A DNA stretch of 64,000 bases from an uncultured Acidobacteriota bacterium. GTDB lineage: Bacteria > Acidobacteriota > Thermoanaerobaculia > Multivoradales > SZUA-115. Within the stretch, counting starts at the first letter, position 1; each line of letters starts with the position of its first letter. Positions 10,764-47,625 of this stretch are shown here, one piece after another. The notes beneath the pieces were generated by a model. The model did no database searches. It saw nothing but the letters and a program-made list of their open reading frames with translations, and was not told the DNA's origin. The stretch spans positions 608,001 through 672,000 of the forward strand of contig CAWDVR010000005.1 in assembly GCA_963805975.1 (NCBI GenBank), written 5' to 3'. Made by a program: the position numbers and the translations under genes.

Positions 10764-12236
10764 TTACGGCGAGCCGGGCAGCGGCGTCGTCAGGTAGGGG
10801 AAGGTGGCGTCGAACTGGCTCGGGTCCTGGAGCGTGCCGTCGGTGAACGGCAGGTTGCCCGAGGGCGCATCGGCCGGATCGCAGAACACGCCGGGGAAGG
10901 CATGGCAGAGCAGGCCCATCGCCACCCGCAGCTCGACGTCCACCACGTCGTCTCCGGGCCGGCGGCCGTTCGGGAAGCCGGCGTTGTCGCCGCCGATGAC
11001 GCCCAGGTTGTTCTGCTGCGCCTTCGGGGTCGCCGGGATCGAGGTGTTGAGGCGCTGCATCTCACCGAAGCCGAACTCGTTGAGGCCGCTGATGCCGGTG
11101 ACGAAGGCGGCCAGGAGGTCGGTGCGGGGGAAGTTGTTCGGCGCCCGCACGCCGGCGCCGCCGAAGAGGATCTCGAGCAGCTCGGGCAGCGTCGGGTTGG
11201 TGACGTAGGTGGCGAACTGGACGTCATTTTCCGGGTGGCTGGCGTTGAAGCGGTCCTTGTCCTTGAGGCCGATCACCACCTCGTTGACCAGCGGCATCCC
11301 CAGGCGGGAGACCTGCACGAAGTCGCCCGAGTCATTGGTCGGGTCGCGGAAAGTGGGGTCGTCGCGCAGGGCGCGGTTCCTCATCAGGGAGGCGGTGGTC
11401 CAGGCGCCGAAGACCGGGTTGTTGCCGCGGGTCAGGCAGTTGGCCGGCACCTCGATGGCGAAGGTGGTGATGTTCTTGTCCTCGAGGTCCGAGGGCACGG
11501 CGTCGCGCGGCCCCAGCGGGTTGGCGATGTTGACCAGGTCGAAGACCTGCCCGAGGTTGACGGCGAACGGCTCCTTGCGCTGGCCGACAAAGACCCGGCC
11601 GGTGGCGATGCCGCAGCCGGGGATGTTGATGTCCTGGATGAAGCCGTTGGCGTAGGCGGCGTAGTTCGGGATCGACTTCTGGCCGATGTTGTCGACCGGC
11701 TTGCCGAAACGGGTCGAGCCGGTCTCCGCGTTGGCCACTTCGGTGACGGTGCGGGCCGGATTGTCGACGCCGCCGCGGATCAGTTGCAGCGTGTAGGACT
11801 CGACCACGTTGAGCGCGCCCGTGCCGAAGGCGCCGCCCAGCGGGCCGGCGTTGATGAGCGGGATGGAGACCGTCTGGTTGCCGACCGGGATGGCGATGTC
11901 GCGGAGAGCGATGGCGATGCGAAACTGGAAGGTGATGTCGTCGCGGCCGTCGCCCGAGTTGTCGACGTGGATGCGGTAGAGGGCGTCACGGTCGAGCGTG
12001 AAGTAGTTGGGGCCGCCGTAGGCGTCCTGGAGCGGCACGTAGTTGGCGATCAAGGTCACGTAGCCCTCGCGGCCGGGCTCGTAGCTCATGAAGGCGTAGA
12101 AGTCGGTGCCGTCGGTCTTCGGGTGCTCGGTGATGAAGGGCGCCTCGCGATGGCTGGACGCGACGGCCGATCCGGCCAGCGCCAGCGTTGCGAGCGCGGC
12201 AGCCATGCCGAGCCAGGTGGGTTTCGAGAGCTTCAT
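10764..12236 (-). CDS. DUF4331-family secreted protein
   Basis: ASSHREAP, TDFYAF, QVSRLGMPLVNE and GFPNGRRPGDDVVD motifs. Confidence 0.9.
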   Translation of the reverse strand: MKLSKPTWLGMAAALATLALAGSAVASSHREAPFITEHPKTDGTDFYAFMSYEPGREGYVTLIANYVPLQDAYGGPNYFTLDRDALYRIHVDNSGDGRDDITFQFRIAIALRDIAIPVGNQTVSIPLINAGPLGGAFGTGALNVVESYTLQLIRGGVDNPARTVTEVANAETGSTRFGKPVDNIGQKSIPNYAAYANGFIQDINIPGCGIATGRVFVGQRKEPFAVNLGQVFDLVNIANPLGPRDAVPSDLEDKNITTFAIEVPANCLTRGNNPVFGAWTTASLMRNRALRDDPTFRDPTNDSGDFVQVSRLGMPLVNEVVIGLKDKDRFNASHPENDVQFATYVTNPTLPELLEILFGGAGVRAPNNFPRTDLLAAFVTGISGLNEFGFGEMQRLNTSIPATPKAQQNNLGVIGGDNAGFPNGRRPGDDVVDVELRVAMGLLCHAFPGVFCDPADAPSGNLPFTDGTLQDPSQFDATFPYLTTPLPGSP

Positions 12237-12361
12237 TGCGGATTCTCCTCCATGAGGTTTCGTTGCCGGGTGCGTGACTCGAGATCAGCGTTCAGCTCGG
12301 GATACGGAGCGGCTCCGCGCGCGGATGAGTCCGCGCGCCAGATGGAGGCGGGCGCCCCCGG

Positions 12362-13648
12362 CTACTGCTTCTCGAGCGGCAGGGTGCCGGGAGGCAGCTC
12401 GGCGACCCGCAGGCGGGAGGCGTTCTTGTCGGCCCCGACCTCGACCCAGGCGACGAACAGGCCGCCGCCTGCGAGCGCCAGACGGGGGAAGCCACTCGCC
12501 CGCCCGGCGGTGGTGGTGGCGAGGCGCAGGAGCCGGCTCTTCCGGCCGTCGCGGCTCACCCGCTGGAGCCGGAGCTCGGCCGTGCCGGGAACGGCCTCGG
12601 CGAGCCAGCTCACGACCGCGCTGCCGTCACCGTCGAGCACCAGGGCGACGCGGCCCAGGGAACCCTGGGTATCGAGGACCCGCGGTGGCTCGAAGCCGTC
12701 GCTCGCGGCGCGGGAGAAGGCGAGGGCCACCCGCGGGCCGGCAGCGCTCGGCGAGACGCCCGCGAACCAGGCGACCGCGAGCTCGTTGCCGCGGGCGGCG
12801 ACCATCGGCCCGTTGACCGGGCAGCCGGGGATCTTCCAGCCGTCTGCGAAGACCGGCCTCGAGGCGGTCCAGCGGCCGGTGGCGCGCGCGATGGCCGCGA
12901 TGTCGCGGATCTCCTCCCCCGAGCGGTCGCGGTAGACCACGACCGGCCCGGCGTCGGTCGCGGCCGCCGCGGTCTGGCAGCAGTCGCACACCCGGTCGTC
13001 GAGCTCCTCGCCGGCGCCGACCGTGCTGCCCACCAGCGCCGTGCGGAGCGCCATGGCGCCGCCGGTCGAGGTGCCGCGGCCGTCGAGCCAGAAGGCGCGG
13101 AGCCCTTCGCCCTCCGGCACCAGGGAGACGAAGCCGTGCTCGGTCTCGGTGGCGTCGTCGTGCAGGCGTCCCAGGCGCCGCCAGCTCTTGCCGCCGTCGG
13201 TGGAGCGGGCGAGCTCGATCGAGTAGGCGTAGGTGCCGGCGCCGCTCTTGGCCAGCCAGTGGGCGAGGAGGGAGCCGTCCCTGCCGCGCGCCACCGACGG
13301 AAAGTCCGCCCAGTTGGCGAGCAGGTTCGGGTCGGCGACGACGGTCGAGGCCTCGCTCCAGCGCCCGTGCTCGAGGCCAGCCAGGCGCAGGCGCGGAGCG
13401 CCCGCGACCACCGGGGTGCCGGCTGGCGACGGCTCGATCCAGGTGAGGAGCAGCGTGCCGCCGTCGGTCACGCCGCCGGCCCAGTTGGGCGCCATCGAGC
13501 CGGCGAGCGCCGCCGGCGGCGAGCGGTCGATCGCTCCCGCCGGCAGGGAAGGCTGCGCCGCGACCGTGGCCGCGGCGAAGAGTAGCGCCGCGAGGAACGA
13601 AGCCGTGGCCAAGCGCCTACCCGTCGGCCTTGATGACCCCGCAGGCAA
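12362..13648 (-). CDS. Secreted BNR/sialidase-like beta-propeller protein
   Basis: NWADFP, STDGGKSW Asp-box, TEHGFVS, VCDCC and GCPVNGP motifs; start uncertain. Confidence 0.8.
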   Translation of the reverse strand: MPAGSSRPTGRRLATASFLAALLFAAATVAAQPSLPAGAIDRSPPAALAGSMAPNWAGGVTDGGTLLLTWIEPSPAGTPVVAGAPRLRLAGLEHGRWSEASTVVADPNLLANWADFPSVARGRDGSLLAHWLAKSGAGTYAYSIELARSTDGGKSWRRLGRLHDDATETEHGFVSLVPEGEGLRAFWLDGRGTSTGGAMALRTALVGSTVGAGEELDDRVCDCCQTAAAATDAGPVVVYRDRSGEEIRDIAAIARATGRWTASRPVFADGWKIPGCPVNGPMVAARGNELAVAWFAGVSPSAAGPRVALAFSRAASDGFEPPRVLDTQGSLGRVALVLDGDGSAVVSWLAEAVPGTAELRLQRVSRDGRKSRLLRLATTTAGRASGFPRLALAGGGLFVAWVEVGADKNASRLRVAELPPGTLPLEKQ

Positions 13649-16625: not shown

Positions 16626-17996
16626 TCAGGAAGCCTGCTGGTAGGCGAGCTCCGGGTTGCCCCGCGCTTCGCGCAGGTAGCGGGAGATGTCGGTCAACAG
16701 TTGCAAGGTGACGCTCTCGGCCTTGGCAGCGCGCTGGAAGACCAGCAGGGCGGCCGTGGCCTCGCGGTGCACGTCGCGCGAGCGGAAGATCGGCAGCATC
16801 TCCTCGGCCAGCTCCTTCATCTCACCGGTGCGCCCCTGCTGGGCATAGACCGCGGCGAGGTCGAGCGAAGCCAGAGCGGCGTCGTAGGCGATGCCGCGCT
16901 CCACGAACTCGTCGCGCATGCGGCCGAACACCTTCTCCGCCTCGTCGAGCTTGTTGAGGCCGCGGGCGATCTTGCCCTCGAGCCACAGAGTACGCATGTG
17001 GTCGACGCTGCCCTCGTGCTGCGCCACCAGCCGCTTGATCTCCGGCAGCATCTTGCGGGCTTCCTGGTTCTTGCCGGCCGTGGCCAGGCAGGCGGCGATG
17101 GTGTGCTTCACGCACCAGACCAGGCGCGGTTCGCGCTGCTCGTCGATCAGCCCCATGGCCTCGTTGAGCTGCTCGATTGCCGCCTGGGGCTCACCGGCCT
17201 CTTCGAGCACCGCGGCACTGTAGATCAGGGTGCGGCCCACCCAGTGGTCCTCGCCGGCCTCGCGGTAGATGGCGAGGGCCTTCTGCAGCAGGTCACTCGC
17301 TTCGTCGAAGCGGCGCTGCTCGCGGCGCAGCTCGCCCTTGAGGCTCATCGTGCGCGCCTTGAGCAGCACGTCGTCGGTGCCGTCGGCGAGGCTCGCCTCG
17401 GCAGCGGTGAAAGCTTCCTCGGCGCTGCGCAGGTCGGAGGCCACGCGGCGGGCGTTAGCGATGTAAGTCCAGGACCGCGCCTTGAGGTCGTTGACCAGGG
17501 CCGGGCCGTAGTGGCTACCCTCGAGCTGGCCGGCGACCACCAAGGCGAGCTCGGCCAGATCCTCGGCGCGGGAAGGATCGTCGATCACCGAGCGCAGGCT
17601 CTCCTCGAGCAGGAACTCGGCGAATACATAGTTCTTGAACCGCCACGTGCGCTGGATCAGCGCGCGCTGGCGGCTGACCGGGTGACGGGTGAGCTCGGTG
17701 TAGAGCTTCGGCGCCCGGGCACGGTCCCGATCGCGTGCCTCACCCCGCACCTCGAGGGTGTTCTGACCAAAAGTGAAAGCGCGGTCGTAGCTCGGGTTGT
17801 CGGCGACGTCGAGAGGCTGGAGACCCTGGAAGAGGGTGCTGAGCAGCTCGCTGCCCTCCGGCGCGAGTCGTTCGACCTCTTTGCGGCAGGCGGCGCAATT
17901 GAACAGGTGCCAGGAGACTTTCATGTTCTCCCGCCGGTTCAGCTTGCCGCGGCTGAACTTCTCCAGCATCTTTTCATCAGGGTGCGTCTTGGGCAT
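16626..17996 (-). CDS. N-terminal zinc-finger (H..HxxxCxxC, anti-sigma-like) plus TPR-repeat protein, copy 1
   Basis: HPD...HLFNCAACR; helical repeats; AAGGAG RBS 7 nt before ATG 17996; paralog of 21234..22553. Confidence 0.9.
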   Translation of the reverse strand: MPKTHPDEKMLEKFSRGKLNRRENMKVSWHLFNCAACRKEVERLAPEGSELLSTLFQGLQPLDVADNPSYDRAFTFGQNTLEVRGEARDRDRARAPKLYTELTRHPVSRQRALIQRTWRFKNYVFAEFLLEESLRSVIDDPSRAEDLAELALVVAGQLEGSHYGPALVNDLKARSWTYIANARRVASDLRSAEEAFTAAEASLADGTDDVLLKARTMSLKGELRREQRRFDEASDLLQKALAIYREAGEDHWVGRTLIYSAAVLEEAGEPQAAIEQLNEAMGLIDEQREPRLVWCVKHTIAACLATAGKNQEARKMLPEIKRLVAQHEGSVDHMRTLWLEGKIARGLNKLDEAEKVFGRMRDEFVERGIAYDAALASLDLAAVYAQQGRTGEMKELAEEMLPIFRSRDVHREATAALLVFQRAAKAESVTLQLLTDISRYLREARGNPELAYQQAS

Positions 17997-18020
17997 ATTC
18001 AAGCTCCTTGTTCGCCGGCC

Positions 18021-18302
18021 TCAGGTCCCGGGGAAGACACGCTGAGCCGCTTGGGTCACGCGGCGCCGTTGGTCAACCCAGTGCTTCCGACACTTGTGCC
18101 GGAGCGTTGCCAGCAGCCAGCCGGCAGGCTCCTCAGCACTCTCTCCTCGATAGATGAGCTCCAGAACGGTCGCTTCCAGAAGGCTGCTCGCGTCGCTGGG
18201 GGGGATCTCGTAGCGACGCAAGACCTCCTCGAGGGCGGGCCTCGAAGAGGTATAGAAGATTTCTAAAAATGCGAAATTCCTGCGATGATAGGCATACGTC
18301 AC
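18021..18302 (-). CDS. Small protein resembling ECF sigma region 2 only
   Basis: LEEVLRRYEIPPSDASSLLEATVLELIY...PAGWLLATLRHKCRKHW; GTG at 18302 lies 7 nt after TGGCAA-N17-CATAAT (possible leaderless start). Confidence 0.6.
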   Translation of the reverse strand: MTYAYHRRNFAFLEIFYTSSRPALEEVLRRYEIPPSDASSLLEATVLELIYRGESAEEPAGWLLATLRHKCRKHWVDQRRRVTQAAQRVFPGT

Positions 18303-18429
18303 GGGGCTTATTATGCACACTTCACCCCTAACTTGCCACCATGCCCAAATTCCGACACCAAGGAGGCGACGAAGAGCTCGCCGCCTAAGAAGGGGAGTCG
18401 TACCGTGAAGAACCGACGTTTCCGATAGT

Positions 18430-18765
18430 TTACGGGCTTCCCGGCAGGTTGAGGCCATCCGGGAGAGCGGAGGAACCATTGCCGCCACTACCTGTGCTGC
18501 CGCCTGTTCCGCCCCCGTTTCCACCGTTTCCGCCACTACCGGACCCACCGATCGAGCCCAACTTCTCGACATTCCGAGAGCCGAGCTCCGGCCTGCCGCC
18601 GGCGATCGAAAAGATCGAAGAGAACCAATCGAAGAGCGAATCGAGCGTCCACCCCGCGAGGTTCGACTGGCGCGCCATGGGTAGGGCGGACGCGGGTAGG
18701 CAGAGGCTGAGTACCGCAACCAAGGCCAGGGCTGTCGCGAGACGAGTGTGTCTTCTCTCTAACAC
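18430..18765 (-). CDS. Small secreted Gly-rich peptide precursor
   Basis: AAAGGAG RBS; signal peptide ending ASA; amphipathic WTLDSLFDWFSSIFS; Gly-rich tail with GSSALPDG. Confidence 0.75.
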   Translation of the reverse strand: MLERRHTRLATALALVAVLSLCLPASALPMARQSNLAGWTLDSLFDWFSSIFSIAGGRPELGSRNVEKLGSIGGSGSGGNGGNGGGTGGSTGSGGNGSSALPDGLNLPGSP

Positions 18766-18970: not shown

Positions 18971-19019
18971 TGGTGGAGCCGATCGGGATCGAACCGACGA
19001 CCTCTTGAATGCCATTCAA
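18971..19019 (-). repeat. att direct repeat: duplicated 3' 49 nt of tRNA-Ala(GGC)
   Basis: TGGTGGAGCCGATCGGGATCGAACCGACGACCTCTTGAATGCCATTCAA is identical to 47550-47598. Confidence 0.98.
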
Positions 19020-19181: not shown

Positions 19182-20413
19182 ATGCGCGGACGGATCACCA
19201 AACGGTCGGTCGATGAACTCGTTCCGAAGCAGCGGAACTCTACCTCTGGGACTCCGAACTTGCAGGCTTCGGGGTCAAGATCACTCCCGAGGGCAGGAAG
19301 GTATACGTCCTCCAGTACCGCACGAGAAACCAGGAGCGGAAGCGGCGGACTGCGCCGAAGCGGATCACAATCGGTCGCCACGGCGAGATGACGCCGGAGC
19401 AGGCGCGAACGCTCGCCTCAAGGTTCCTCCTTGAAGTGACGGCGGGCGGCGATCCACGCCAGGCCTTCCGACCGAGCGAGTCGCCCATGGTCGCCGAGCT
19501 CGCGAATCGCTTCCTCACCGAGTATCTTCCGGGCAAGAAGCGCCCGCCCCGCGCCTCGACCGTCGCCTACTACGAGATCCTCTTCCGCGTGCACGTGATT
19601 CCCGCCCTGGGTGCGAAGCGGGTTGATGCCGTCTCGACCGCGGATGTTGAGAAGCTCCACGCCCGGATGCGGGACACCCCGTACATCGCGAACCGGACAC
19701 TCTCGCTTCTTCAGCACGCCTTCGACCAGGCGGAGCGGTGGGGCTGGCGGCCGCAGCACTCGAACCCCGCGCTCCACGTCGAGCGGTACCGGGAGGACCG
19801 ACGAGGTGCGAAGAAGGAAGTCATGCTCACCTCCTCACAGATGGCGGCCCTGATCGAGGCGATCGACGAGGAGGAAGCGACCGGCGGGGTGAGCATGTGG
19901 CTGCCGCAGCGCTCCGGGTCGCCTTCTGGACGGGCTGGCGGATTGGCGAGGTGCTCGGGCTCCGGTGGACGAACGTGGACATGAGCGCGGGGCGTGGCGC
20001 AGCTCCTGCGGAACGAAGACGGCCGCGGAGGAGTACCGTCAGCTCCCGTCCGAGGCAATTGCGATCGTGAAGCAGGTTCCGAAGGTGGCCGGCTGCCCGT
20101 TCGTCTTCCCCGGCGAGGACTTGACAGACCATCTCACGACGGTGAGGAAGCCGTGGGCGACGCATCCGAGCAGCGCGCGGGCCTCGATCGTCTGGAGGGC
20201 CTGGGCGCGTTCCGCATCCACGACCTCCGGCACAACGTCGTCTCCTGGGACGTGTCGCGGGGGGTGCCGTTGGAGATCGCCGGCAAGAACGTCGGGCACC
20301 GCTCGCGGCGCTCGACCGAGGTCTATGCGCACTTCGCGCCGGACGCCCTGAAGCGTGCGGCAGACGAGCGCGCGGCGGCGATGCGGGCTGCGTTTGAGGC
20401 TGAGCGGACTTAA
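19182..20413 (+). pseudogene. int: Tyrosine integrase with N-terminal arm-binding domain, several frameshifts
   Basis: Pieces in different frames: MRGRITKRSVD, LWDSELAGFGVKI, RITIGRHGEMTPEQAR, GWRIGEVL, IHDLRH, VGH, TEVYAH; frameshifts may be sequencing errors. Confidence 0.9.
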
Positions 20414-20729: not shown

Positions 20730-21119
20730 ATGCGTCGCTTGTTGCGCTTTCTTGCTCTGACTTTGGTCGTAGTGGCAGTGGTAGCTCCAGCAGCCGCGGC
20801 TCCACGCGAGTCCGACTTGGCTCCCGCTCCGCAGTGGGTGTTGAAGCGAATCCAAGTGTTCCTCGAGGAGGTCTCATCTCGCCTGTTCTCTCCTGCGGCG
20901 AAGGATGGCGGACTCATGGACCCGAACGGTGGGAAGGCGCAAGGCGCAAATGGATCAAGAAACGCCCCCAGAGGCACCGCGAGCGTGGATGATGGCGGGC
21001 TCATGGACTCCGACGGCAGGCGCATGACCTCGCGGGGCGGATCGCAGATGGACCCCAATGGAAGAAGGACAGACGGAGCACGGCTAAACGACGGCGGGCT
21101 CATGGACCCGAACGGGTAG
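20730..21119 (+). CDS. Secreted peptide precursor with four GGLMDPNG-like repeats
   Basis: AAAGGAA RBS; signal peptide; DGGLMDPNG, DGGLMDSDG, GGSQMDPNG and terminal DGGLMDPNG-stop. Confidence 0.85.
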   Translation: MRRLLRFLALTLVVVAVVAPAAAAPRESDLAPAPQWVLKRIQVFLEEVSSRLFSPAAKDGGLMDPNGGKAQGANGSRNAPRGTASVDDGGLMDSDGRRMTSRGGSQMDPNGRRTDGARLNDGGLMDPNG

Positions 21120-21233
21120 GAGCGAGTCTTCTCTCGGGAGAGAAAATCTCTTGCGTAGGTGCGCCTCTCGAAATATTGTGTCGCGCACTACACTAGAGAC
21201 GAACGTACTGGTAGTGGGGGAGGGACGCGCGAG

Positions 21234-22553
21234 ATGAGCAGGCATCTCACCTCTGCGGAGCTTGCAGGACTCTTGGAAGGCGTGGCATCGCGCGACCTCA
21301 TCGCGGAGTTTCTTGAGCATCATTTGGAGGTCTGCGAAATCTGTCGTGAGGAATACGAGCGCTTGCAGAGTGGCGACTCCGGCGAGACCTCCTGGCGGGA
21401 GGTAGTCGAGGTCGCCACGGCCCTTTCAGCAAAGCGAGCCGAACGCTTGGCGCGGCTGGAGCAGATAGCCCAGCGCGAATTCCGCGAACTCATGCGCCTG
21501 CCTTCTTCTTCCCGACGCTACAAGATCAACCGAGCCATCAACCGATTCAGGAGTCCGATCCTTGTGGATCTCCTTCTTGCCGAGAGTAAGCGGCAAGTCA
21601 CGAGCGATCCCTGGACAGCGCTCGCGCTTGCAGAGTGTGCATTCGATGGTGCCTTTAGGGTCTCGCATCGGGAGTTTGGCGAGGCATGGGCCATGACGTG
21701 CCTCGCGCGCGCTCACGCTCATCGCGGGAACGCGCTCCGAACGACGGGTGACTTCAAACAGGCAGATGACAGCCTCCTGTTGGCGCTCAAGATCTTTGAC
21801 CAGGACGGAAACAGAGACCCGCTCATCGAGGCCGAGATCCTCTCCTTCCTCGCGTCACTGCGCATGGACCAGCGTAGCTTCATCGAGGCCGAGGGGTATC
21901 TCGATATGGCGCGGGGTATCTATGAAAGGTTGAGCGAGCAGGCCCTCATCGCCCATATCCTGGTGCAGAAAAGCGTGGTCCTCTTCACCGCAGGAGAGTT
22001 TGACCGGGCGCTTGTTGTGGGCCTCGATGCTCTCGGTGCGATAGACCAGTCCACGGACCCGCGGCTCTACCTATCGGCCGAGCACAACTACACCTTCTTC
22101 CTCATGGAGGTTGGCCGCTACCGGGAGGCATGGGAGCGCCTCGAATCGCAGGCTCCTCTCTACGATGCGTTCCCGGACTCGTGGACTCAGCTTCGACGAC
22201 AGAGGCTCCAGGGCAACGTCCTCCGGGGCCTTGGTCGGCGCGATGAAGCCGAGGCAGCGCTCATCGCGGTGCGCGCCGGATTCGTCCGCGAGGGCCTAGG
22301 CTTCTATGCCGCCATTGCGGGCCTCGACCTTGCCTACCTCTATATCGAGGACAGGCGAACGGCAGAGGTCAAGAAGCTCGCCGAGGAGATGGTGCCCATC
22401 TTCATGGCCCAGGACATTCACCGCGAAGCCTCCGCAGCGCTCCTTCTATTCCAAGAGGCGGCGCGGCAGGAGACGGTCACCATCTCCATGCTCAAGGAGC
22501 TCATCGCGTACATGGGGCGGGTCAGGACAGAACCGGCGCGGAAGGTGTCGTAG
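21234..22553 (+). CDS. N-terminal zinc-finger plus TPR-repeat protein, copy 2
   Basis: HLT...HHLEVCEICR; C-terminal LDLAYLY...LAEEMVPIF...DIHREASAALLLFQ matches copy 1. Confidence 0.9.
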   Translation: MSRHLTSAELAGLLEGVASRDLIAEFLEHHLEVCEICREEYERLQSGDSGETSWREVVEVATALSAKRAERLARLEQIAQREFRELMRLPSSSRRYKINRAINRFRSPILVDLLLAESKRQVTSDPWTALALAECAFDGAFRVSHREFGEAWAMTCLARAHAHRGNALRTTGDFKQADDSLLLALKIFDQDGNRDPLIEAEILSFLASLRMDQRSFIEAEGYLDMARGIYERLSEQALIAHILVQKSVVLFTAGEFDRALVVGLDALGAIDQSTDPRLYLSAEHNYTFFLMEVGRYREAWERLESQAPLYDAFPDSWTQLRRQRLQGNVLRGLGRRDEAEAALIAVRAGFVREGLGFYAAIAGLDLAYLYIEDRRTAEVKKLAEEMVPIFMAQDIHREASAALLLFQEAARQETVTISMLKELIAYMGRVRTEPARKVS

Positions 22554-24795: not shown

Positions 24796-24842
24796 GAACG
24801 AGGAAAACCCCGGCCGGTGAAGGCGCAGGGCTTCTCTCGTTC
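24796..24842. repeat. Hairpin, third copy of the GCCCCGGCCGGTGAAGGC..GGGCTTCTCT element
   Basis: Related to the hairpins at 28461-28498 and 30536-30572. Confidence 0.75.
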
Positions 24843-24904: not shown

Positions 24905-24957
24905 TGGTTGCGCTTGACGGCCAGATTTGAACCGGCGACCTGTAGATTACGAATCTG
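24905..24957 (-). pseudogene. Degenerate 3' half of tRNA-Thr(CGT)
   Basis: Minus strand CAGA-TTCGTAA-TCTA CAGGTC GCCGG-TTCAAAT-CTGGC ...ACCA; no canonical D-arm upstream. Confidence 0.65.
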
Positions 24958-26460: not shown

Positions 26461-27860
26461 TCACTCTACTTATCACTCTTGCTGCATACTATGCTATTAC
26501 ACTGACTATCGGTCTTGTAAAGACTCGGCGCTCGACTGCTGCCGAGTATGTACATGCCCCTAGATACTTTCGGCTGGCTTCCCACGGCGGGTCTACCTGG
26601 TAGGTACAGTCGTCGGCGGAGGGATGTTTCTAGGAGTAGCACAACTAGGTTTTGACTCTAGTCTCTCTGCCTTTGCGCTTGGAGTCAGCTGCCTGGCGGG
26701 ATCTCTAGTTTTCGGGCTCCTCGCGCCCTCCATTCGTCGCTGGGCACGGGACCACCAAGTTAGGACTCTGTTTGGGGTTTTCGAAGCGCTCTATCCATCT
26801 CGCGGTCGCCAGCCTTCGATGGAGGCCTTGTTCGCTGGAGCGACTCTGTTCGTCTTCTTCCTAATGCTAGCTGTCCAGTTTGTGGGAGTCGGAAGCTTCC
26901 TATCGTTTCGAGCGGGCATCAACCTTCCTCTTGCCGTTGCAATCGGATCAGCGGTAGTAGCGGTCATTTCGACGCTTATTTATTCAGTTGTCGGTGGTTT
27001 CAAGAGAGATGTCTTAACCGATCTGTTTCAGGTTGCTGCGATTATTATTGGCCTGGTTCCGCTTGTTCTCGGGTTGATAGACCATGACGCGCTCGATAAA
27101 GTCCAAAGTCTTCCTCCTGAAACCTTTCGCCTTGAATCGGAGCACCTTGATCTTTTTTTCTGGCTTCTGCTCTTCGTTGCGCCAACATTTTTGGTTCGCT
27201 TCGATCTCTGGCAGAGAGCAATCGCCGGCCAAGACGGATACTGCCGCCAGAAATGCTTTCTGGGCGAGTGGAGTCGCAAGCGCTATCTTCTTCTCTGTTT
27301 TTTTCGTGGAGTTGGACTTTTCGGTCGCGCTCTGGGACTCGAGAATCTCCCCACACATCGGCCTTGAAGTAATCAGTAACGTCGTGCCGACACATCTGCT
27401 GGGCTTGGTATTGGCAGCCTTCTTCGCTGCTGTGATGTCTTCGGCCGAATACGTTTCTTGGAGTCGCTGGATTGGCGTTGGCGAAGTGTACTATCTATCG
27501 TAAGAATGAGCTAGAAGTGCTCAGGACGACAAGATCTGAGTATCGAGACTTCGTTTTCTCGCCTTGTCGGTCGGCTTAGTTGCTTGTGCTTTCGCCTACC
27601 TCATCCGAGATATTGTCGATTTTTTGTTCGCTGCTGCCTACGGAATTCTGATAGTTTTTCTGCCGGCACTCATAGGAGGTATTGCGCGAAAGGACCCGCG
27701 AGAAATGGAGGCGCGCTGGAGTGCGATTCTCGGCCTGGTCACAGTTGTTCCTCTGCTGTTCGTTATCCCAACTGAGGCATTTCTGCCTGGGATTGTGGTC
27801 TCGACGGCAACCTATTTGCTTTTGGCGCGCAAGGCGAGACGACCCAGGTCCGGACCTTGA
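26457..27860 (+). pseudogene. Sodium:solute symporter family transporter, frameshifted
   Basis: TVVGGGMFLG, YSVVGGFKRDVLTDLFQ, WQRAIA and AAFFAAVMSSA motifs spread over several frames. Confidence 0.85.
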
Positions 27861-28455: not shown

Positions 28456-28669
28456 CACCAGAGAGAGCCCCGGCCGGTAACGGCACGGGGCTTCTCTCTA
28501 CGGAGCACAGCGACTCGTGGAACGCCACGAGGCCACGTGTCTCCGAAGGATGATCCGCGATCCAGGTCAAGAGCAGGGTTAGGGTGTCAGGTAAGCGCGC
28601 AGGAACGTCTGCCTGCTTGATCAGGCAGGTGTCGAAAGGCTTCGAGGTGTGCTCTGTTGAAGGGCACAA
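28456..28669 (-). repeat. Imperfect copy of the serine recombinase 3' end plus terminator
   Basis: Aligns to 30532-30755; encodes PDTLTLLLTWIADHPSETRGLVAFHESL. Confidence 0.92.
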
Positions 28670-28757
28670 GACGGTGACCTCTGCCGCTGTGGCGGCGGTC
28701 AGGGGCCGAAGAGGCCGTGATGTCCAGGATGCTAGATGGCTCATCCTGCAAGCGTAG

Positions 28758-28782
28758 AAAAAGGGCGCGCTAAGCACGCCCT
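28758..28782 (-). terminator. Rho-independent terminator of the cargo unit
   Basis: Minus strand AGGGCGTGC-TTA-GCGCGCCCT-TTTT. Confidence 0.75.
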
Positions 28783-28984
28783 GACGCCGCCATCGAATCC
28801 TACATTTCCGGAGGCATGCTCTCGCAGCGATTGCTCCTGCGACTCTGGTTGCTTCGTGTCCTCTGGCGGGAATCGTGAATGAGAGCCGCGCGATGGTTTC
28901 TCGCGAACCCGAGATGATCCTCACGCGATCCTCTCCAATGCGCTCATACCGAAGCTTCTCGCTCTGTTGTTCGGCTTCTGGCAT
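28783..28984 (-). CDS. Small hypothetical protein (MPEAEQQSEKLRYERIGEDRVRII...), end uncertain
   Basis: GGAGG RBS before ATG 28984; the frame runs through the terminator, so the true stop is probably hidden by an indel. Confidence 0.4.
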
Positions 28985-29082
28985 ATGGCCTACCTCCGTG
29001 TTCGGATTGAATCTAGCTCCAGTATGCCACTGCGATTCTGAAATGCCAGCATTATCCCCGGCTCCCCTGGTAGCAGTCTGAT

Positions 29083-30147
29083 CTAGGAAGACGGTGGGGT
29101 TGCCCCTGTTGTTCGGTTGAAATTCGACCACTTCTCAACTATGGGATAGACAGCGAATGCAAGCGAAACGATCCACTCAGGGTCGTATCGCTCCACGAAG
29201 ACACCCTTAGAGGCGCTATCGAGACAAAGAAATCCGAGGAGATCCTTCGCATCCGCTTCCTCCGATCGCTTGATCGGCGCAACGATCGCACTGCGGTACG
29301 GCAGCGGCCAGTGGAGCCTGCGGAGCTTATTGGTAAAAAACGGAAATCGGATCTCTGGGGGTTTGTCGTAGATCTCAAAGCTGGTGTTCTGATAACTGCG
29401 TCGTGTCGGAAGGTCATTGTCGAAGAAAAAGCGAGTCTTCGCCCGATCTCTGTCCGACAGGACCCAGGCAAAGGCAGTATTGGCACGGAGCCAGTGCGTA
29501 GCGCCGTCCGTCTTTCTCTTTTTTGATTTGCTGTCTCGTACGAGCGTTGACACTGCAAGCTGAGGCTCGGTTGCCCCGGTCGCGCCGATCACCTTGATGC
29601 ACACCGCGCAACTTGTCCCGGTTATCATTCCAAAGGCAGCGGACAAGTTGTCACAAACCTTGCTCGCGCTTGTGGTCAGCTCGTTGACGGTCGTCAACTC
29701 TGAACTCTGACAGATATGGATTGCCTCTCGGAAGAACTCCGCTGCTTCCGCATAGCGCGCTTTTCGAGAGTAGCGGTACTCCTGGGCCACGGCGAGAGAG
29801 AACGAAACGAGGGCGAACAGAGCCAGCAGGGACATTCCCCACTTGCCCTCGGATCCGGTCCGGACCAGGTAAATATGGAGGAGGCCCCAGATGCTGGCGA
29901 AGCCGCCAGCGAGGCCGACAGACGAAAAGAGAAATCGACGGATGCCTATCACGCTAACTCGAGATGGCTCCTTACTCGCGGAGTTTAGCGAGAAGCGAGT
30001 AAGGCGGTCAAGTCCTCTGTCGAACCGTGCTCGTACAGATTCGCCGTTGTCCGCCTGGACAGCGGCAACAAGTCCTATCGCGGCTCTCCAGCCAGCAACC
30101 GACTCACCAAGCGGCCCGCAGAGGATACTGGAGCCAAGGAAGCTCAT
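29083..30147 (-). CDS. Two-TM membrane protein with C-terminal GAF-like domain
   Basis: Two hydrophobic helices; YRSAIVAPI...LLGFLCLDS GAF-like end; true start probably later (~29952). Confidence 0.7.
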   Translation of the reverse strand: MSFLGSSILCGPLGESVAGWRAAIGLVAAVQADNGESVRARFDRGLDRLTRFSLNSASKEPSRVSVIGIRRFLFSSVGLAGGFASIWGLLHIYLVRTGSEGKWGMSLLALFALVSFSLAVAQEYRYSRKARYAEAAEFFREAIHICQSSELTTVNELTTSASKVCDNLSAAFGMITGTSCAVCIKVIGATGATEPQLAVSTLVRDSKSKKRKTDGATHWLRANTAFAWVLSDRDRAKTRFFFDNDLPTRRSYQNTSFEIYDKPPEIRFPFFTNKLRRLHWPLPYRSAIVAPIKRSEEADAKDLLGFLCLDSASKGVFVERYDPEWIVSLAFAVYPIVEKWSNFNRTTGATPPSS

Positions 30148-30531
30148 GGCCGGTTAGCATATTACCACTTCCTGGCGTGGACTGTGAGGAATCTCACAGC
30201 CAGTGGGGATTCTTGAGGCGAGCGTGCTCTAGCACCTGAGCGCGGCAACGATCATCGGGTGGGAGAAGAGCGGCTTGCCGACTCTTGTCGTCCGCGGGGT
30301 CGTAGTGGCAGTGGCCGGCGGGATGCTAGGCAGCAGGCCTGGTGACAAGTGTGAGGCCGGAGATGCAATCCGAACGATGGTAGTGTGATTGTGGGGTATA
30401 GAGAGGCTTCGGTCGAGGCAGTGCTTGAGTGAGTAGGCGCTGCGAGGACAGATGTGACGCTAGCGTCGAGCGCGGCCGTGGAGGAGATGTCGGCCCTCGG
30501 CCTCAAGCTCTGGTCGCGATGGAAGATGCCT

Positions 30532-30755
30532 CACTAGAGAAGCCCCGGCCGGTGAAGGCACGGGGCTTCTCTTTCTACGGAGACAGAGACTCGTGAAAGG
30601 CCACGAGGCTACGTGTCTCCGCAGGATGATCCGCAATCCGGGTCAAGAGCAGGGTTAGGGTGTCGGGTGAGGGCGCAAGAGCGCTCGAAGATGCGATCTC
30701 CTGCTTGATCGGCAGGTGTCGAGGGCTTCGAGGTGTGGTCTGTTGAAGGGCACAA
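30532..30755 (-). repeat. Serine recombinase 3' end plus terminator hairpin (repeat partner of 28456-28669)
   Basis: Stem AGAGAAGCCCCG...CGGGGCTTCTCT at 30536-30572; shared GCTTCGAGGTGTG.TCTGTTGAAGGGCACAA end. Confidence 0.92.
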
Positions 30756-32181
30756 CAAGCATCATTGGCCCTCTCAAGGAGCAGCACAAAGGGAAACGAC
30801 GGTTCAACGGCAACGTGGTTTGGCGAGACAGTACGGTTCGAGGTCAGACAATCGAGGATGCGGCGCTTTTCGCCGACATTCGCCGTTCTGTAGGTCAACG
30901 AAGCCGTGCTTGCCAGTTCGAGGATTCTCTCGGCGTCGTCGACTCGCGTCCTCGCAGGATCGTCAAGCGAGGCGATCTCGTCCTCAACACGCCGCTTCTC
31001 CTTCAAGAGCCGTCGTCGCTTCTCTTCATAGGTCTCCTTGTCCACGCTTTGGTCTAGGTAGGCGTCGGTCAATCGGTCGAGCCGCGCTGCGACCTGGCCG
31101 GCTGGCAGGCAAAGAGCGTTCGGCTTCGTTCGGCTTCCCCTCGTGCCTGCTCGCCTCGCTCTCGAAGCGCTGCGGCGAAGATCGCCTTGGCTTCCTCTCG
31201 GAACTGGAGCTGCGCCAAGACGCCCTGCACGGCTTCGTCGAGCTTCTCCTCTCGGATGCCCGTCATCGGGCAGCCTTTGGTGTGGCAGCGATAGTCGACG
31301 TGGCCCTTCTGGCGTTCACCGATGAGTGTGGTGCGGCACTCGGCACACCGGAAGAGCTTGCGGAAGGCGAAGTCGTGCTTGACGACCCGCGGCACGTTCC
31401 GACCGTGAAGGATCTCCTGTACGCGATCGAAGAGAGCTGTGCCGATCAGAGGCTCGTGGATTCCAGGATAGGTCTCCTTGGTCTTCTTGATCCGGATGAG
31501 GCCGGTGTAGAAGGGGTTCTGGAGCATGATCCAGACGCCGGTCTGCGAGATGGGCGTTCCTCGCATGTTGGCGAGCCCAAGCTCGCGCATCTTCGCGGTC
31601 AAGGTCGGAACGCTGTACTGCCGTGTGGCGTATAGCTCAAAGGCCGTCCGCACCAGAGGCGCCCGTATCGGGTCGATCGCCTTGGGCTTGCCGCCTCCCA
31701 TGTTGAGGTATCCGACGGGCGCGCCGAAGGGATAGATGCCCTGCTTGAGGCGTCCATAGAGGCCCTTCTTGGTTTCCTCGCGGAGGTTGCGGATGTAGTC
31801 AGCGGCGATGACCGCCTGAATGTCGGCGGTGAGCCGGCCGCCGCGCGACGTGAGATCGAGATTGTCCGAGACGAAGTGGACGTTGACGCCAGCATCGATG
31901 AGCTCCCCGAGATCGGCCCAATCGCGGAGGTTCCGCGCAGAGCGGTCGATCTTGTGGATGACGACGCCCTCGACTTTTCGCGCGCGAAGAAGCTTCACCA
32001 TCCTGGTGAAGACGGGCCGCCCGCGCTTGGCTGCGGTCTCGCGCTCCTCGAACCACTCGCTGATCTCTATCCCGCGTGCCTGCGCGTACCGCGCAATGGC
32101 GTCCTGCTGGACTTCGAGCGAGACACCCTGTTCACCCTGCTTTGCCGTGGATACGCGGATGTATCCGAAGCATAGGGTCAT
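30575..32181 (-). CDS. Large serine recombinase (resolvase + recombinase + Zn-ribbon), frameshifted near 31100
   Basis: YIRVST catalytic Ser, KIDRSARN, APVGY, NPFYTG, HEPLI, RCAEC..YRC and coiled coil continuing in ORF 30575..31072. Confidence 0.93.
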
Positions 32182-32390
32182 GAATGAAACGGTATTGAGT
32201 TGTAAAGGTTCGACCTGGGGTTCAGCGTATGCCGCTCGTCGCTCTCTGTCAAAGCGGCAGGATGATTGTGGCTTGCGATCTCACCGGCGAGCGTGACCCA
32301 CGAGCGGGTGAACTCCGCGACGGCCTGCTGCTCGCTCTCGGCGAGGTGCGGCAGCAGGCGCTCGATAGTTGCTTGAAGGGAATCAGTCAT
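32178..32390 (-). CDS. Small hypothetical protein coupled to the recombinase
   Basis: MTDSLQATIERLLPHL...; ATGA overlap with the recombinase start. Confidence 0.5.
   Translation of the reverse strand: MTDSLQATIERLLPHLAESEQQAVAEFTRSWVTLAGEIASHNHPAALTESDERHTLNPRSNLYNSIPFHS
32224..32252 (-). promoter_or_regulatory. Sigma70-type promoter for the serine recombinase
   Basis: TTGACA-N17-TACGCT about 40 nt upstream of the ATG. Confidence 0.65.
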
Positions 32391-33118: not shown

Positions 33119-34528
33119 GGCGGAGAAGGAGAAGCGCCGACCGCGGCCGTCTGTCGGTGCGGTGCTTGAAGGCGGCGAGATCGTCGAGATGATCCGCACG
33201 CAGGCAGGCGACGAGATTCCTCCTATGGGACGGGGAGACTTCCCGTGAGGAGTGCTCCGTTGACCTGCCTTTCGGGACTCCGCCTGGTGCCGTACTCGCC
33301 GGAGAACAACCTCCTCGTGCATCAGGTGGTGCTCTTCCCATCCGGCACCGAGGAGTACGGGGGCGAAGCGGAGCTCGCTGCTGCCGTCCAGTCCTTCATC
33401 CATCGATATGTGGATCTCTCGCCCCTCTACGAAGAAGTCGCCGCCTGGTACGTGCTCTTCACGTGGATCTACGATTCCTTCAACGAGGTGCCGTACCTCC
33501 GCGTCCGCGGCGACTATGGCTCCGGCAAGTCGCGCTTCCTCCTCACCGTGGGCTCCCTCTGCTACCGGCCGATCTTCGCCTCGGGCGCTTCGACCGTCTC
33601 TCCCATCTTTCGGATACTGGACTCCATGAAGGGAACCCTCGTCGTTGACGAGGGAGACTTCCGCGTCTCCGACGAGAAGGCGGAGGTGGTCAAGATCCTC
33701 AACAACGGGAACGCGCGCGGTTTCCCCGTGCTCCGAAGCGAGCAGACGCCTTCCAAGGAATTCAACCCGACCGCGTACTCGGTCTTCGGCCCCAAGCTCG
33801 TCGCGACACGCGGTTTCTTTGAGGATCGGGCGCTTGAGAGCCGGTGCATCACCGAAGAGCTGGGCGGAAGATCGCTCCGCCGCGACATCCCGCTCAACCT
33901 GCCGGCGAGCTTCCGAGAGGAGGCGCTTAACCTGCGCAACAAGCTTCTCTTGTATCGGTTCAGGAACAGGGGCCGAGAGCGGCTGCTCGGTGAGGTCGAA
34001 GACCGGACGCTTGAGCCACGGGTCTCGCAGATCTTTGCGCCGCTGCTCGCGACCGTGAGCGACGTGCAGGCGCGGGAGCGCGTGAAGCTCCTGGCCCAAG
34101 GCGCAAGCAAAGGACTGACCGTCGAGCGGTCAGCGACGATCGAGGCGCAGGTGGTCGAGGTGCTCTCCGAGTTCGTCGGTACTCGCGAGACAGTCTCGGT
34201 CAAGGAGATCACCGAGCGATTCCAAGTGAGGTTCGGCGGAGAGCTGGAGCGGCCCGTGTCGCCCCGGTGGGTCGGGTCGATCCTCCGGCGCCGCCTTTTC
34301 TTGGCGCATGCAAGAGCAACGGCACGTTCGTCCTTTCGCTTGCCGACCGCGAGAACACGGCCCGCCTCATGGAGAGTACGGCGTCCTCACCTCCAGTGGA
34401 GATGGGGACGTCGGGATGTCTCAGGGGGACGCGCTCGACGGATAGCTCCGTCGGCAGCGATACCGCGGGCCGGTGATGCCCGTCCTCTCGGTCGTCCCCA
34501 CGTCCCTATGTCTGCGGAGAACCGCTGA
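33111..34528 (+). CDS. P-loop ATPase, probable replicative helicase of the element (DUF3631-like), frameshifted at both ends
   Basis: PYLRVRGDYGSGKS Walker A; TLVVDE Walker B; ALESRC arginine finger. Confidence 0.8.
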
Positions 34529-34538
34529 CAGTCTCCCC

Positions 34539-34577
34539 AGACTCCTGCCACAGCGGCAGGAGTCTCTTTGATTTTTT
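34539..34577 (+). terminator. Rho-independent terminator
   Basis: AGACTCCTGCC-ACAGC-GGCAGGAGTCT followed by CTTTGATTTTTT. Confidence 0.8.

Positions 34578-47549: not shown

Positions 47550-47625
<76 letters not shown>

Follow-up and report, generated by a model that had tools for sequence, protein, structure and literature searches.

Integrons are defined by IntI, attI, attC and Pc. In another arrangement the attachment site lies within the recombinase gene itself: in Myxococcus phage Mx8 IntP and in archaeal SSV1-type integrases, attP is inside the integrase gene, and integration changes or splits that gene. We know of no cargo arrays with spare tails for either of these. Here we describe the locus of a large serine recombinase (LSR) whose 3' end recurs behind a cargo gene. 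It lies in a 64,000-nucleotide stretch of DNA, hereafter the window, from an uncultured Acidobacteriota bacterium (assembly GCA_963805975.1, contig CAWDVR010000005.1, positions 608,001 to 672,000 of the forward strand); all coordinates below are those of the window. An earlier sequence-only reading had proposed that the att site of this enzyme lies in its own 3' end and that units of tail, terminator and cargo had collected there.

Several described systems share parts of this arrangement. In Dehalococcoides, dsiB is described as always having a 3' end that overlaps attL and as having a variable C-terminus, and 15 of 31 tandem ssrA islands are reported without an integration module (PMC3146451). 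McMurdie et al. 2011 suggested that dsiB is complete only on the circle or beside an island that supplies its 3' fragment (PMC3146451). For the staphylococcal cassette chromosome (SCC), Hossain et al. 2024 report that Ccr enzymes excise tandem cassettes, one at a time or jointly, that these are bounded by att sites and rich in anti-phage genes, and that SCC-like cassettes can lack recombinases of their own (PMC11470126). In the account of cis-mobilisable and of integrative and mobilisable elements (CIMEs and IMEs), elements that have lost their integration genes and retain att sites accrete in tandem in a site-specific manner (PMC5704250).

Results

The tail repeat and its two junctions

The LSR gene (30575..32181, minus strand, with a frame change near 31100) encodes, according to Pfam, a resolvase domain, a recombinase domain, a zinc ribbon and a coiled coil, followed by a tail of 59 codons, in agreement with the roughly 60 repeated codons first claimed. 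This tail is present twice. The copies at 28456-28669 and 30532-30755 align at 84.6% over 228 columns (E 8e-62), and blastn searches of both against the whole genome (5.36 Mb) confirm exactly two copies of the recombinase-tail repeat. Read on the minus strand, the edge of similarity is as abrupt as proposed, with 12 of 30 matches before the junction and 28 of 29 after it. The shared peptide is also as claimed, with a qualification to its R/W difference: the R is probably a sequencing error, and the tail of P0015, an intact database copy of the enzyme whose LSR is 99.4% identical, has W, not R.

The first junction (junction 1, 30726..30755, minus strand) is a putative attP-type site, delimited by family alignment and by conservation at third codon positions, with GT at 30753-30752 and TCGA at 30731-30728. 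From it runs the attached tail with its GC-rich hairpin (30532..30754, minus strand; stop codon 30577-30575, hairpin 30572-30536), placed by blastn and folding. Junction 2 opens the orphan tail and its hairpin (28456..28668, minus strand; GT at 28667-28666, hairpin 28500-28459), and between equivalent junction points the unit measures 2,086 bp. A position weight matrix (PWM) of the junction, which at score 14 matches the host genome 2.4 times per Mb, scores junction 1 at 14.8 and junction 2 at 18.8. The left arm of the orphan junction (X, 28669..28760, minus strand) is non-coding and bears no relation to the recombinase coding arm. Derivation of the X-arm hairpin from the one at 34535-34564 by inverted copying was rejected, since the score of 30 falls short of the highest value among shuffles, 35.

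The terminators proposed earlier fared unevenly. A terminator scanner called an intrinsic-terminator-like hairpin that closes the cargo on the minus strand (28762..28782), but not the hairpins behind the two tails, whose predicted folding energies are about -30 and -33 kcal/mol. The sole further blastn match of the repeat in the genome, over 31-33 nt (24805-24838, minus strand; E 2.5e-5), is a third copy of the tail hairpin alone, with no tail before it. Some 80 bp away is a 3' fragment resembling tRNA-Thr(CGT) (24916-24955, minus strand), which matches the host tRNA-Thr at 87.5% over 40 nt; together they may be a scar left by an earlier island end, or by a unit whose tail is gone. Beyond G000, a DNA search of 301 genomes of the class found no second holder of the tail, only one 25-nt chance match, and the exact junction pattern gave 0 matches in the viral contigs searched.

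The junction across the recombinase family

LSR homologues were drawn from genomes, metagenomes and viral contigs, and 74 distinct full-length loci were kept. Excluded before this count were duplicates (L086, L090, L103, L120), L045 because it is truncated, a second LSR of L029 that has no att site, and open reading frames (ORFs) that scored 560 or less or ended before model position 470; a single-protein scan of genome contigs gave one locus. By their junction, 65 of the 74 are tail-type, 8 have tRNA-type spacing and 1 is neither. The tail form reads G-x-P-x4-P-R-T followed by a Leu-rich helix. At five of the eight tRNA-type loci, ARAGORN finds an intact tRNA (Glu, Leu and three Ala) on the opposite strand, starting at the junction. 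The tails hardly vary at third codon positions (+2 T in 60/65, +23 T in 64/65, +26 A in 60/65), and the constraint therefore acts on the DNA.

In the tails the motif TCGAAC stands at +23. In the tRNA arms, where it is the reverse complement of the T-loop, it is 6 bp closer, at +17 (one arm has it at +16). A shift of 5 bp in the zinc-domain motif between attB and attP is described for serine integrases (PMC3783163), which argues for reading the tail as a P' arm and the tRNA end as a B' arm. The locus L096, which has a tRNA-Ala end, is 86-88% identical to the tail-type loci L094 and L100 up to +8 and diverges beyond. The junctions show only weak dyad symmetry and no Rfam match, no attC model search having been made. 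This family comparison bears out the proposal of an att site inside the recombinase's own 3' end, and the junction is likely the crossover site of the LSR's own attP.

Orphan tails behind the recombinase genes

Same-strand PWM matches number 13 in 421 kb downstream of LSRs, against one weak match in 362 kb upstream; matches at -190 (inside the LSR) and +17 (an internal repeat) were left uncounted. Two more orphan copies were found by BLAST and inspection. Of the tail-type loci, 45 extend 1.5 kb or more downstream, and 12 of these have orphan tails. A fresh set of 20 loci outside the PWM training, for which about 3 kb upstream was retrieved, has orphans in six (five by PWM, one by BLAST), all beginning at the junction. 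Variable cargo at the same junction, which the sequence-only reading expected of homologous loci, is present in 12/45 and 6/20 loci. In all 16 copies of the first set, identity jumps from 5-16/30 to 20-29/29 at the junction.

These boundaries bear directly on a non-specific origin of the second tail, through erosion of an old tandem copy by random deletion, duplication by homologous recombination, or misassembly. Such events do occur, and the island assembly has many frame breaks; truncated LSR genes are found in some units (L038), and a 453-bp LSR 3' remnant in G053 (L037) that does not start at the junction is one exception to the pattern. However, random deletion would not stop at the same base in 16 + 6 copies, and the copies differ by 15% with indels. 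Moreover, a second assembly encodes the intact LSR, the cargo and the small ORF of the unit on what appears to be a single 23,497-bp contig. We consider a non-specific origin very improbable, since the conserved boundary largely refutes it; the case for a site-specific junction, as far as sequence comparison can make it, is strong.

A related alternative already raised, a degraded element inserted in tandem, is not exclusive of site-specific insertion. It finds support in 8 of the 16 first-set units, which retain parts of the recombinase module: either an LSR that is truncated or has no att site, or the partner gene described below, sometimes inverted. The window unit keeps none, with no remnant of LSR or partner gene. 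Because of these parts, many units look like reduced whole elements, and this speaks against reading them purely as cassettes. The L029 unit contains a family LSR of full length that lacks the att motif (11728-13269). The formation of units by precise self-deletion of the LSR was considered and is unsupported, similarity ending at the end of the partner ORF.

The loci L071 and L029 behave like an empty and a filled site. Up to the junction they share 91% identity over 5.2 kb, and a further 4.4 kb is 87-89% identical. The attached tail of L071 matches the orphan of L029 (84%), which lies 9.2 kb downstream. This bears on a chimeric origin, in which LSR, first tail, cargo and X were all resident and the attP of a second related island joined a chance attB-like site behind the cargo; the co-integrate would later have been trimmed, the orphan junction would be an attL scar, and the 2.1-kb stretch would never have been mobile. 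This account has the merit of needing the canonical attP x attB reaction alone (PMC3783163). It also predicts orphans downstream only, which matches observation, and X arms are indeed diverse, 6 of 16 carrying TCGA at -13 to -21, near attB-like spacing. Against it, the closest LSR relative in the L029/L071 pair bears the orphan's tail and not the attached one, and L229/L032 show the same trend. X arms are homologous within arrays (L117, L123) and between species (G742 and G053), tail-only units of 54-159 bp exist (L237, L041, L123), and in L073 it is the orphan tail, not the attached one, that precedes genes found behind the attached tail in L060 and L121. We regard a chimeric origin as unlikely.

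Tandem in-frame repeats of the att motif within tails were seen in L237 (4086-4194), L221 (3972-4083), L063, L055 and L119; they are 54-57 bp long, or 17-bp partial, and resemble empty mini-units. In L038 (G115:C82, 15.3-25 kb), short repeats of GTCCCC type and a new LSR start stand behind tails, and two such LSR copies break at the same place past the zinc ribbon, at about residue 320. The X arms of L229 and L073 resemble the sequence directly behind the tail of the same element, which may show how units gain their right end. A tail profile run genome-wide on 10 genomes returned attached or downstream copies only; this profile is insensitive, since it missed several attached tails. Its match 22 kb downstream in G261 was rejected, as it has no junction motif. 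Within the sequence retrieved, a tRNA in anchor orientation lies downstream in one of the 18 relatives' loci with orphans (L041).

Cargo and tails of relatives' units

Unit size runs from 54 bp to 9.2 kb, with most units at 1-3 kb; the cargo varies and includes Qat, CBASS or restriction-modification genes. The L029 unit holds QatABCD, a TIR protein and an Mrr-like nuclease, and L117 has two units, each with a CBASS cyclase and one with a recognised effector with two transmembrane segments (2TM). Vsr, a C5 methylase and a Z1 protein are encoded in one unit of L038, and an NYN protein in that of L063; no match was obtained for the ORFs scanned in the units of L042, L068, L119 and L123. The orphan frames are open in all 12 pairs tested, with pN 0.21 against pS 0.50 in a crude count outside the att codons. 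An AlphaFold2 (AF2) model of the homologue L055 matches serine integrase structures, including Bxb1, phiC31 and A118/LI. In this model the tail is a confidently predicted helix (486-504) that follows a linker of low confidence encoded by the att codons; it lies C-terminal to all catalytic, DNA-binding and coiled-coil parts.

Small units, variable and often defence-type cargo, tails kept as open frames under purifying selection and a predicted helix set on a linker encoded by the att motif could all point to a dedicated serine integron. That would be a true cassette pool shuffled on demand, with exchange of the C-terminal helix tuning activity or direction. There are, however, two orphans per locus at most, and half of the 16 units carry recombinase or partner-gene remains. 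No identical unit was found at two loci among the matches listed in an all-against-all BLAST. The pN/pS signal may stem from the time when the tails were attached, and no promoter-like site was called at the junction. We find such a dedicated system quite improbable.

The 2,086-bp unit of the window

The window unit is a modest example: it is single, and for its cargo only a fold is predicted. The tandem accretion proposed earlier does not hold for the window, where there is no row of units, but units of junction, tail, hairpin and cargo do recur in relatives. The "genes" of the interval come down to one gene of 289 amino acids (aa; 29083..29952, minus strand) and one 60-aa ORF without homologues (28805..28984, minus strand), which is P0014 in the second assembly and is out of frame here. 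Their lower GC content is likewise a matter of reference: the interior, at 58.0%, is barely under the island (61.2%) but far under the host flanks (70.5-70.8%).

The 289-aa protein has 12 homologues at 30-45% identity and no match in Pfam or PADLOC. It has two predicted N-terminal membrane-type helices and a GAF-fold domain (AF2 model pLDDT 84.6; the Foldseek matches are GAF domains), and we describe it as a putative 2TM-GAF protein. A profile of this protein across 401 genomes of the phylum matched in G000 only. The junction has no called sigma-70-like site, and the one weak site within the unit is at chance level. With no integrase of its own and PWM-supported junction motifs at both ends, the unit has the structure by which a CIME is recognised.

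The recombinase and its partner ORF

PF00239, PF07508 and PF13408 all score above cut-off in the window LSR, and the catalytic YxRVS and four zinc-binding Cys are invariant. The LSR is not a Ccr enzyme by score, reaching 83 bits against the CcrB cut-off of 900 and 57-83 bits against CcrA/B/C cut-offs of 700-900. The intact P0015 (535 aa) aligns to 32181-31102 and 31099-30578 at 99.4%; because this intact copy exists, the repair of the enzyme that the sequence-only reading envisaged is needless. The frame break in the LSR and the R-for-W change in its tail are probably assembly errors. P0016-P0018 are the closest relatives (80-86%) and have the attached-tail type. No close LSR is present in five genomes of the same family.

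In 60 of 68 loci a hidden Markov model (HMM) finds a conserved partner gene of about 60 aa upstream of the LSR; the window is among the 8 misses. At the corresponding site the window has a small ORF (32178..32390, minus strand) that the partner HMM misses and that resembles the partner by eye only. The partner is a candidate directionality factor. The partner ORF also recurs inside units, sometimes inverted (L063, L073, L117, L032, L229, L230, L238), and several loci have a motif with TCGA in the interval from the partner to the LSR start.

The host island

The LSR locus lies within a 28.6-kb island bounded by tRNA-Ala(GGC), the island insertion site (47550..47625, minus strand; ARAGORN, Rfam), and by a 49-bp copy of the tRNA 3' end at the far boundary (18971..19019, minus strand; 100% match to 47550-47598). 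A tyrosine integrase gene (19388..20413, plus strand), fragmented in the assembly, lies 8 kb from the array. Pfam Phage_integrase matches its C-terminal piece at E 1e-5, under the gathering cut-off, and no NCBIfam model matched the N-terminal piece. Its homologues sit at island ends in G261 and G053, and this tyrosine integrase would have inserted the 28.6-kb island. An LSR bracketed by a tRNA 3' repeat and a homologue of this tyrosine integrase is also found in G261, G048, G055 and G053. The serine recombinase of the window is, by its place inside the tRNA-bounded island, a passenger.

In G053 (3.2 Mb), five islands carry a family LSR (L032, L033, L035, L036, L037), some in tandem, and four of them have a close homologue of the window tyrosine integrase nearby. 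The window island also encodes coupling-protein-like ATPases. Many genes between 18971 and 47598 are fragmented (the tyrosine integrase, two coupling-type ATPases and a sodium:solute symporter at 26624-27860); such breaks are absent from the second assembly where the two were compared, so that pseudogene calls in the island are unsafe. The small ORF of the unit has two further single-base indels relative to the second assembly.

A conserved backbone ORF (33245-34528), provisionally labelled DUF3631 although it has no Pfam or NCBIfam match, is about 60% identical in the islands of six relatives. A small protein and a long TPR protein form a module that is present inside the island (20730-22553) and, in similar form, just outside it (16626-18765); the small protein at 20730 has 29-nt internal repeats. 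No tmRNA was found in the window.

Discussion

We propose that this recombinase family inserted the 2,086-bp unit at the LSR's own attP, so that the unit provided a new tail and the old one was displaced downstream. We hold this to be the probable history of the locus, on the evidence of sequence comparison. The starting point is visible in the sequence: a junction with both tails in place, and the same junction dividing relatives into tail-type and tRNA-type. The tail would act as the P' arm of attP and the tRNA 3' end as the B' arm of attB, so that some members would have integrated at tRNA ends and lost their tail. In the window and four other genomes the LSR rides in a tRNA-bounded island with a tyrosine integrase, and because it is carried in this way its attP stays intact. 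Recombinase-less circles of tail, hairpin, cargo and X arm could then recombine with this attP, many of them perhaps being reduced descendants of whole elements. Each insertion would restore a full-length LSR gene and displace the previous tail, and the reverse reaction would excise the unit. By geometry, excision of the unit would give the enzyme the second tail.

Such insertion would require a non-canonical pairing, P-P' x X-P', hypothetically of the relaxed kind known for A118 and CcrAB. Intramolecular attP x attP recombination is reported for the LI and A118 integrases and for CcrAB in the published accounts we draw on. Several points weigh against the proposal. In the same accounts, intermolecular attP x attP recombination by LI integrase is at background, and canonical serine integrases are described as not carrying out attP x attL-like recombination. 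The X arms share no common consensus over 16 copies, 33 of 45 and 14 of 20 loci have no orphan, and no far-end tail was found upstream of the eight tRNA-type loci within the 2-11 kb present. The crossover point itself is ambiguous, identity beginning at +1 (GT) and dyad symmetry peaking at +3/+4. The tails of P0016-P0018 share residues with both window copies and so do not tell which of the two is older. Neither an empty nor a circular form of the window unit was seen. Finally, the orphan tail in the window loses its frame after 15 codons as assembled; given the indels in the small ORF, these frame-breaking indels may be errors too.

A bolder extension is possible, although we regard it as doubtful. 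The locus would be a serine counterpart of the integron, housed inside tyrosine-integrase islands and needing no host target gene, with its own reading frame as the docking site. Entering defence or sensor units would bring a working spare C-terminal helix, and this helix, perhaps with the 60-aa partner as directionality factor, would set capture, excision and rest.

If insertion at the LSR's own attP is correct, mobile islands have a second, serine-based route by which to collect defence and other cargo. Orphan tails would then be a sequence signature that marks the limits of cargo units exactly, which would help to find new anti-phage genes. The question raised for dsiB in 2011, whether a 3' fragment supplied by a neighbour matters for the enzyme, becomes directly testable. 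A family that ends at several tRNA 3' ends and tolerates non-canonical site pairs would also be of interest to users of serine integrase tools.

Comparison with known systems

The integron-like logic suggested at the outset stands as far as variable small units at one site are concerned, but membership of the integrons fails: the enzyme beside the array is a serine recombinase in place of IntI. The likeness is that a platform beside a recombinase gene gathers small cargo units, the newest presumably nearest the enzyme. Whereas integrons use a tyrosine enzyme, attC hairpins and Pc, this family has a serine enzyme and double-stranded att-type sites, and its units open with a tail and hairpin instead of relying on Pc. 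The Mx8 IntP and SSV1-type integrases also differ in being tyrosine recombinases.

With SCC and SCCmec the family shares a large serine recombinase (CcrAB or CcrC in their case) and neighbouring cassettes without recombinases. However, SCC att sites are described at and downstream of rlmH, with tested cassettes of 17-26 kb (PMC11470126), whereas here the junctions lie in the LSR tail and the island at tRNA-Ala. CIMEs and IMEs, as presented in PMC5704250, occupy host target genes, unlike the docking site in the recombinase's own reading frame. The DsiB islands are similar in that the att site overlaps the recombinase 3' end, as it does in the window family. They differ, according to PMC3146451, in being anchored at ssrA, with a 20-bp ssrA repeat, an insertion placed in the T-loop and a DsiA/ParB/Mom module. 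In the window the repeat is the enzyme's own coding tail and no ssrA or tRNA anchor stands behind the array; the platform sits within an island that has a tyrosine integrase, and most units of the family measure 1-3 kb.

We found no description of this exact layout in the open-licence PMC and bioRxiv literature. On sequence grounds, the feature in the window is outside the integron, SCC and ssrA-island families. Its layout is partly known from dsiB; what is distinctive is that the coding tail of the enzyme itself forms the platform, within an island that has a tyrosine integrase.

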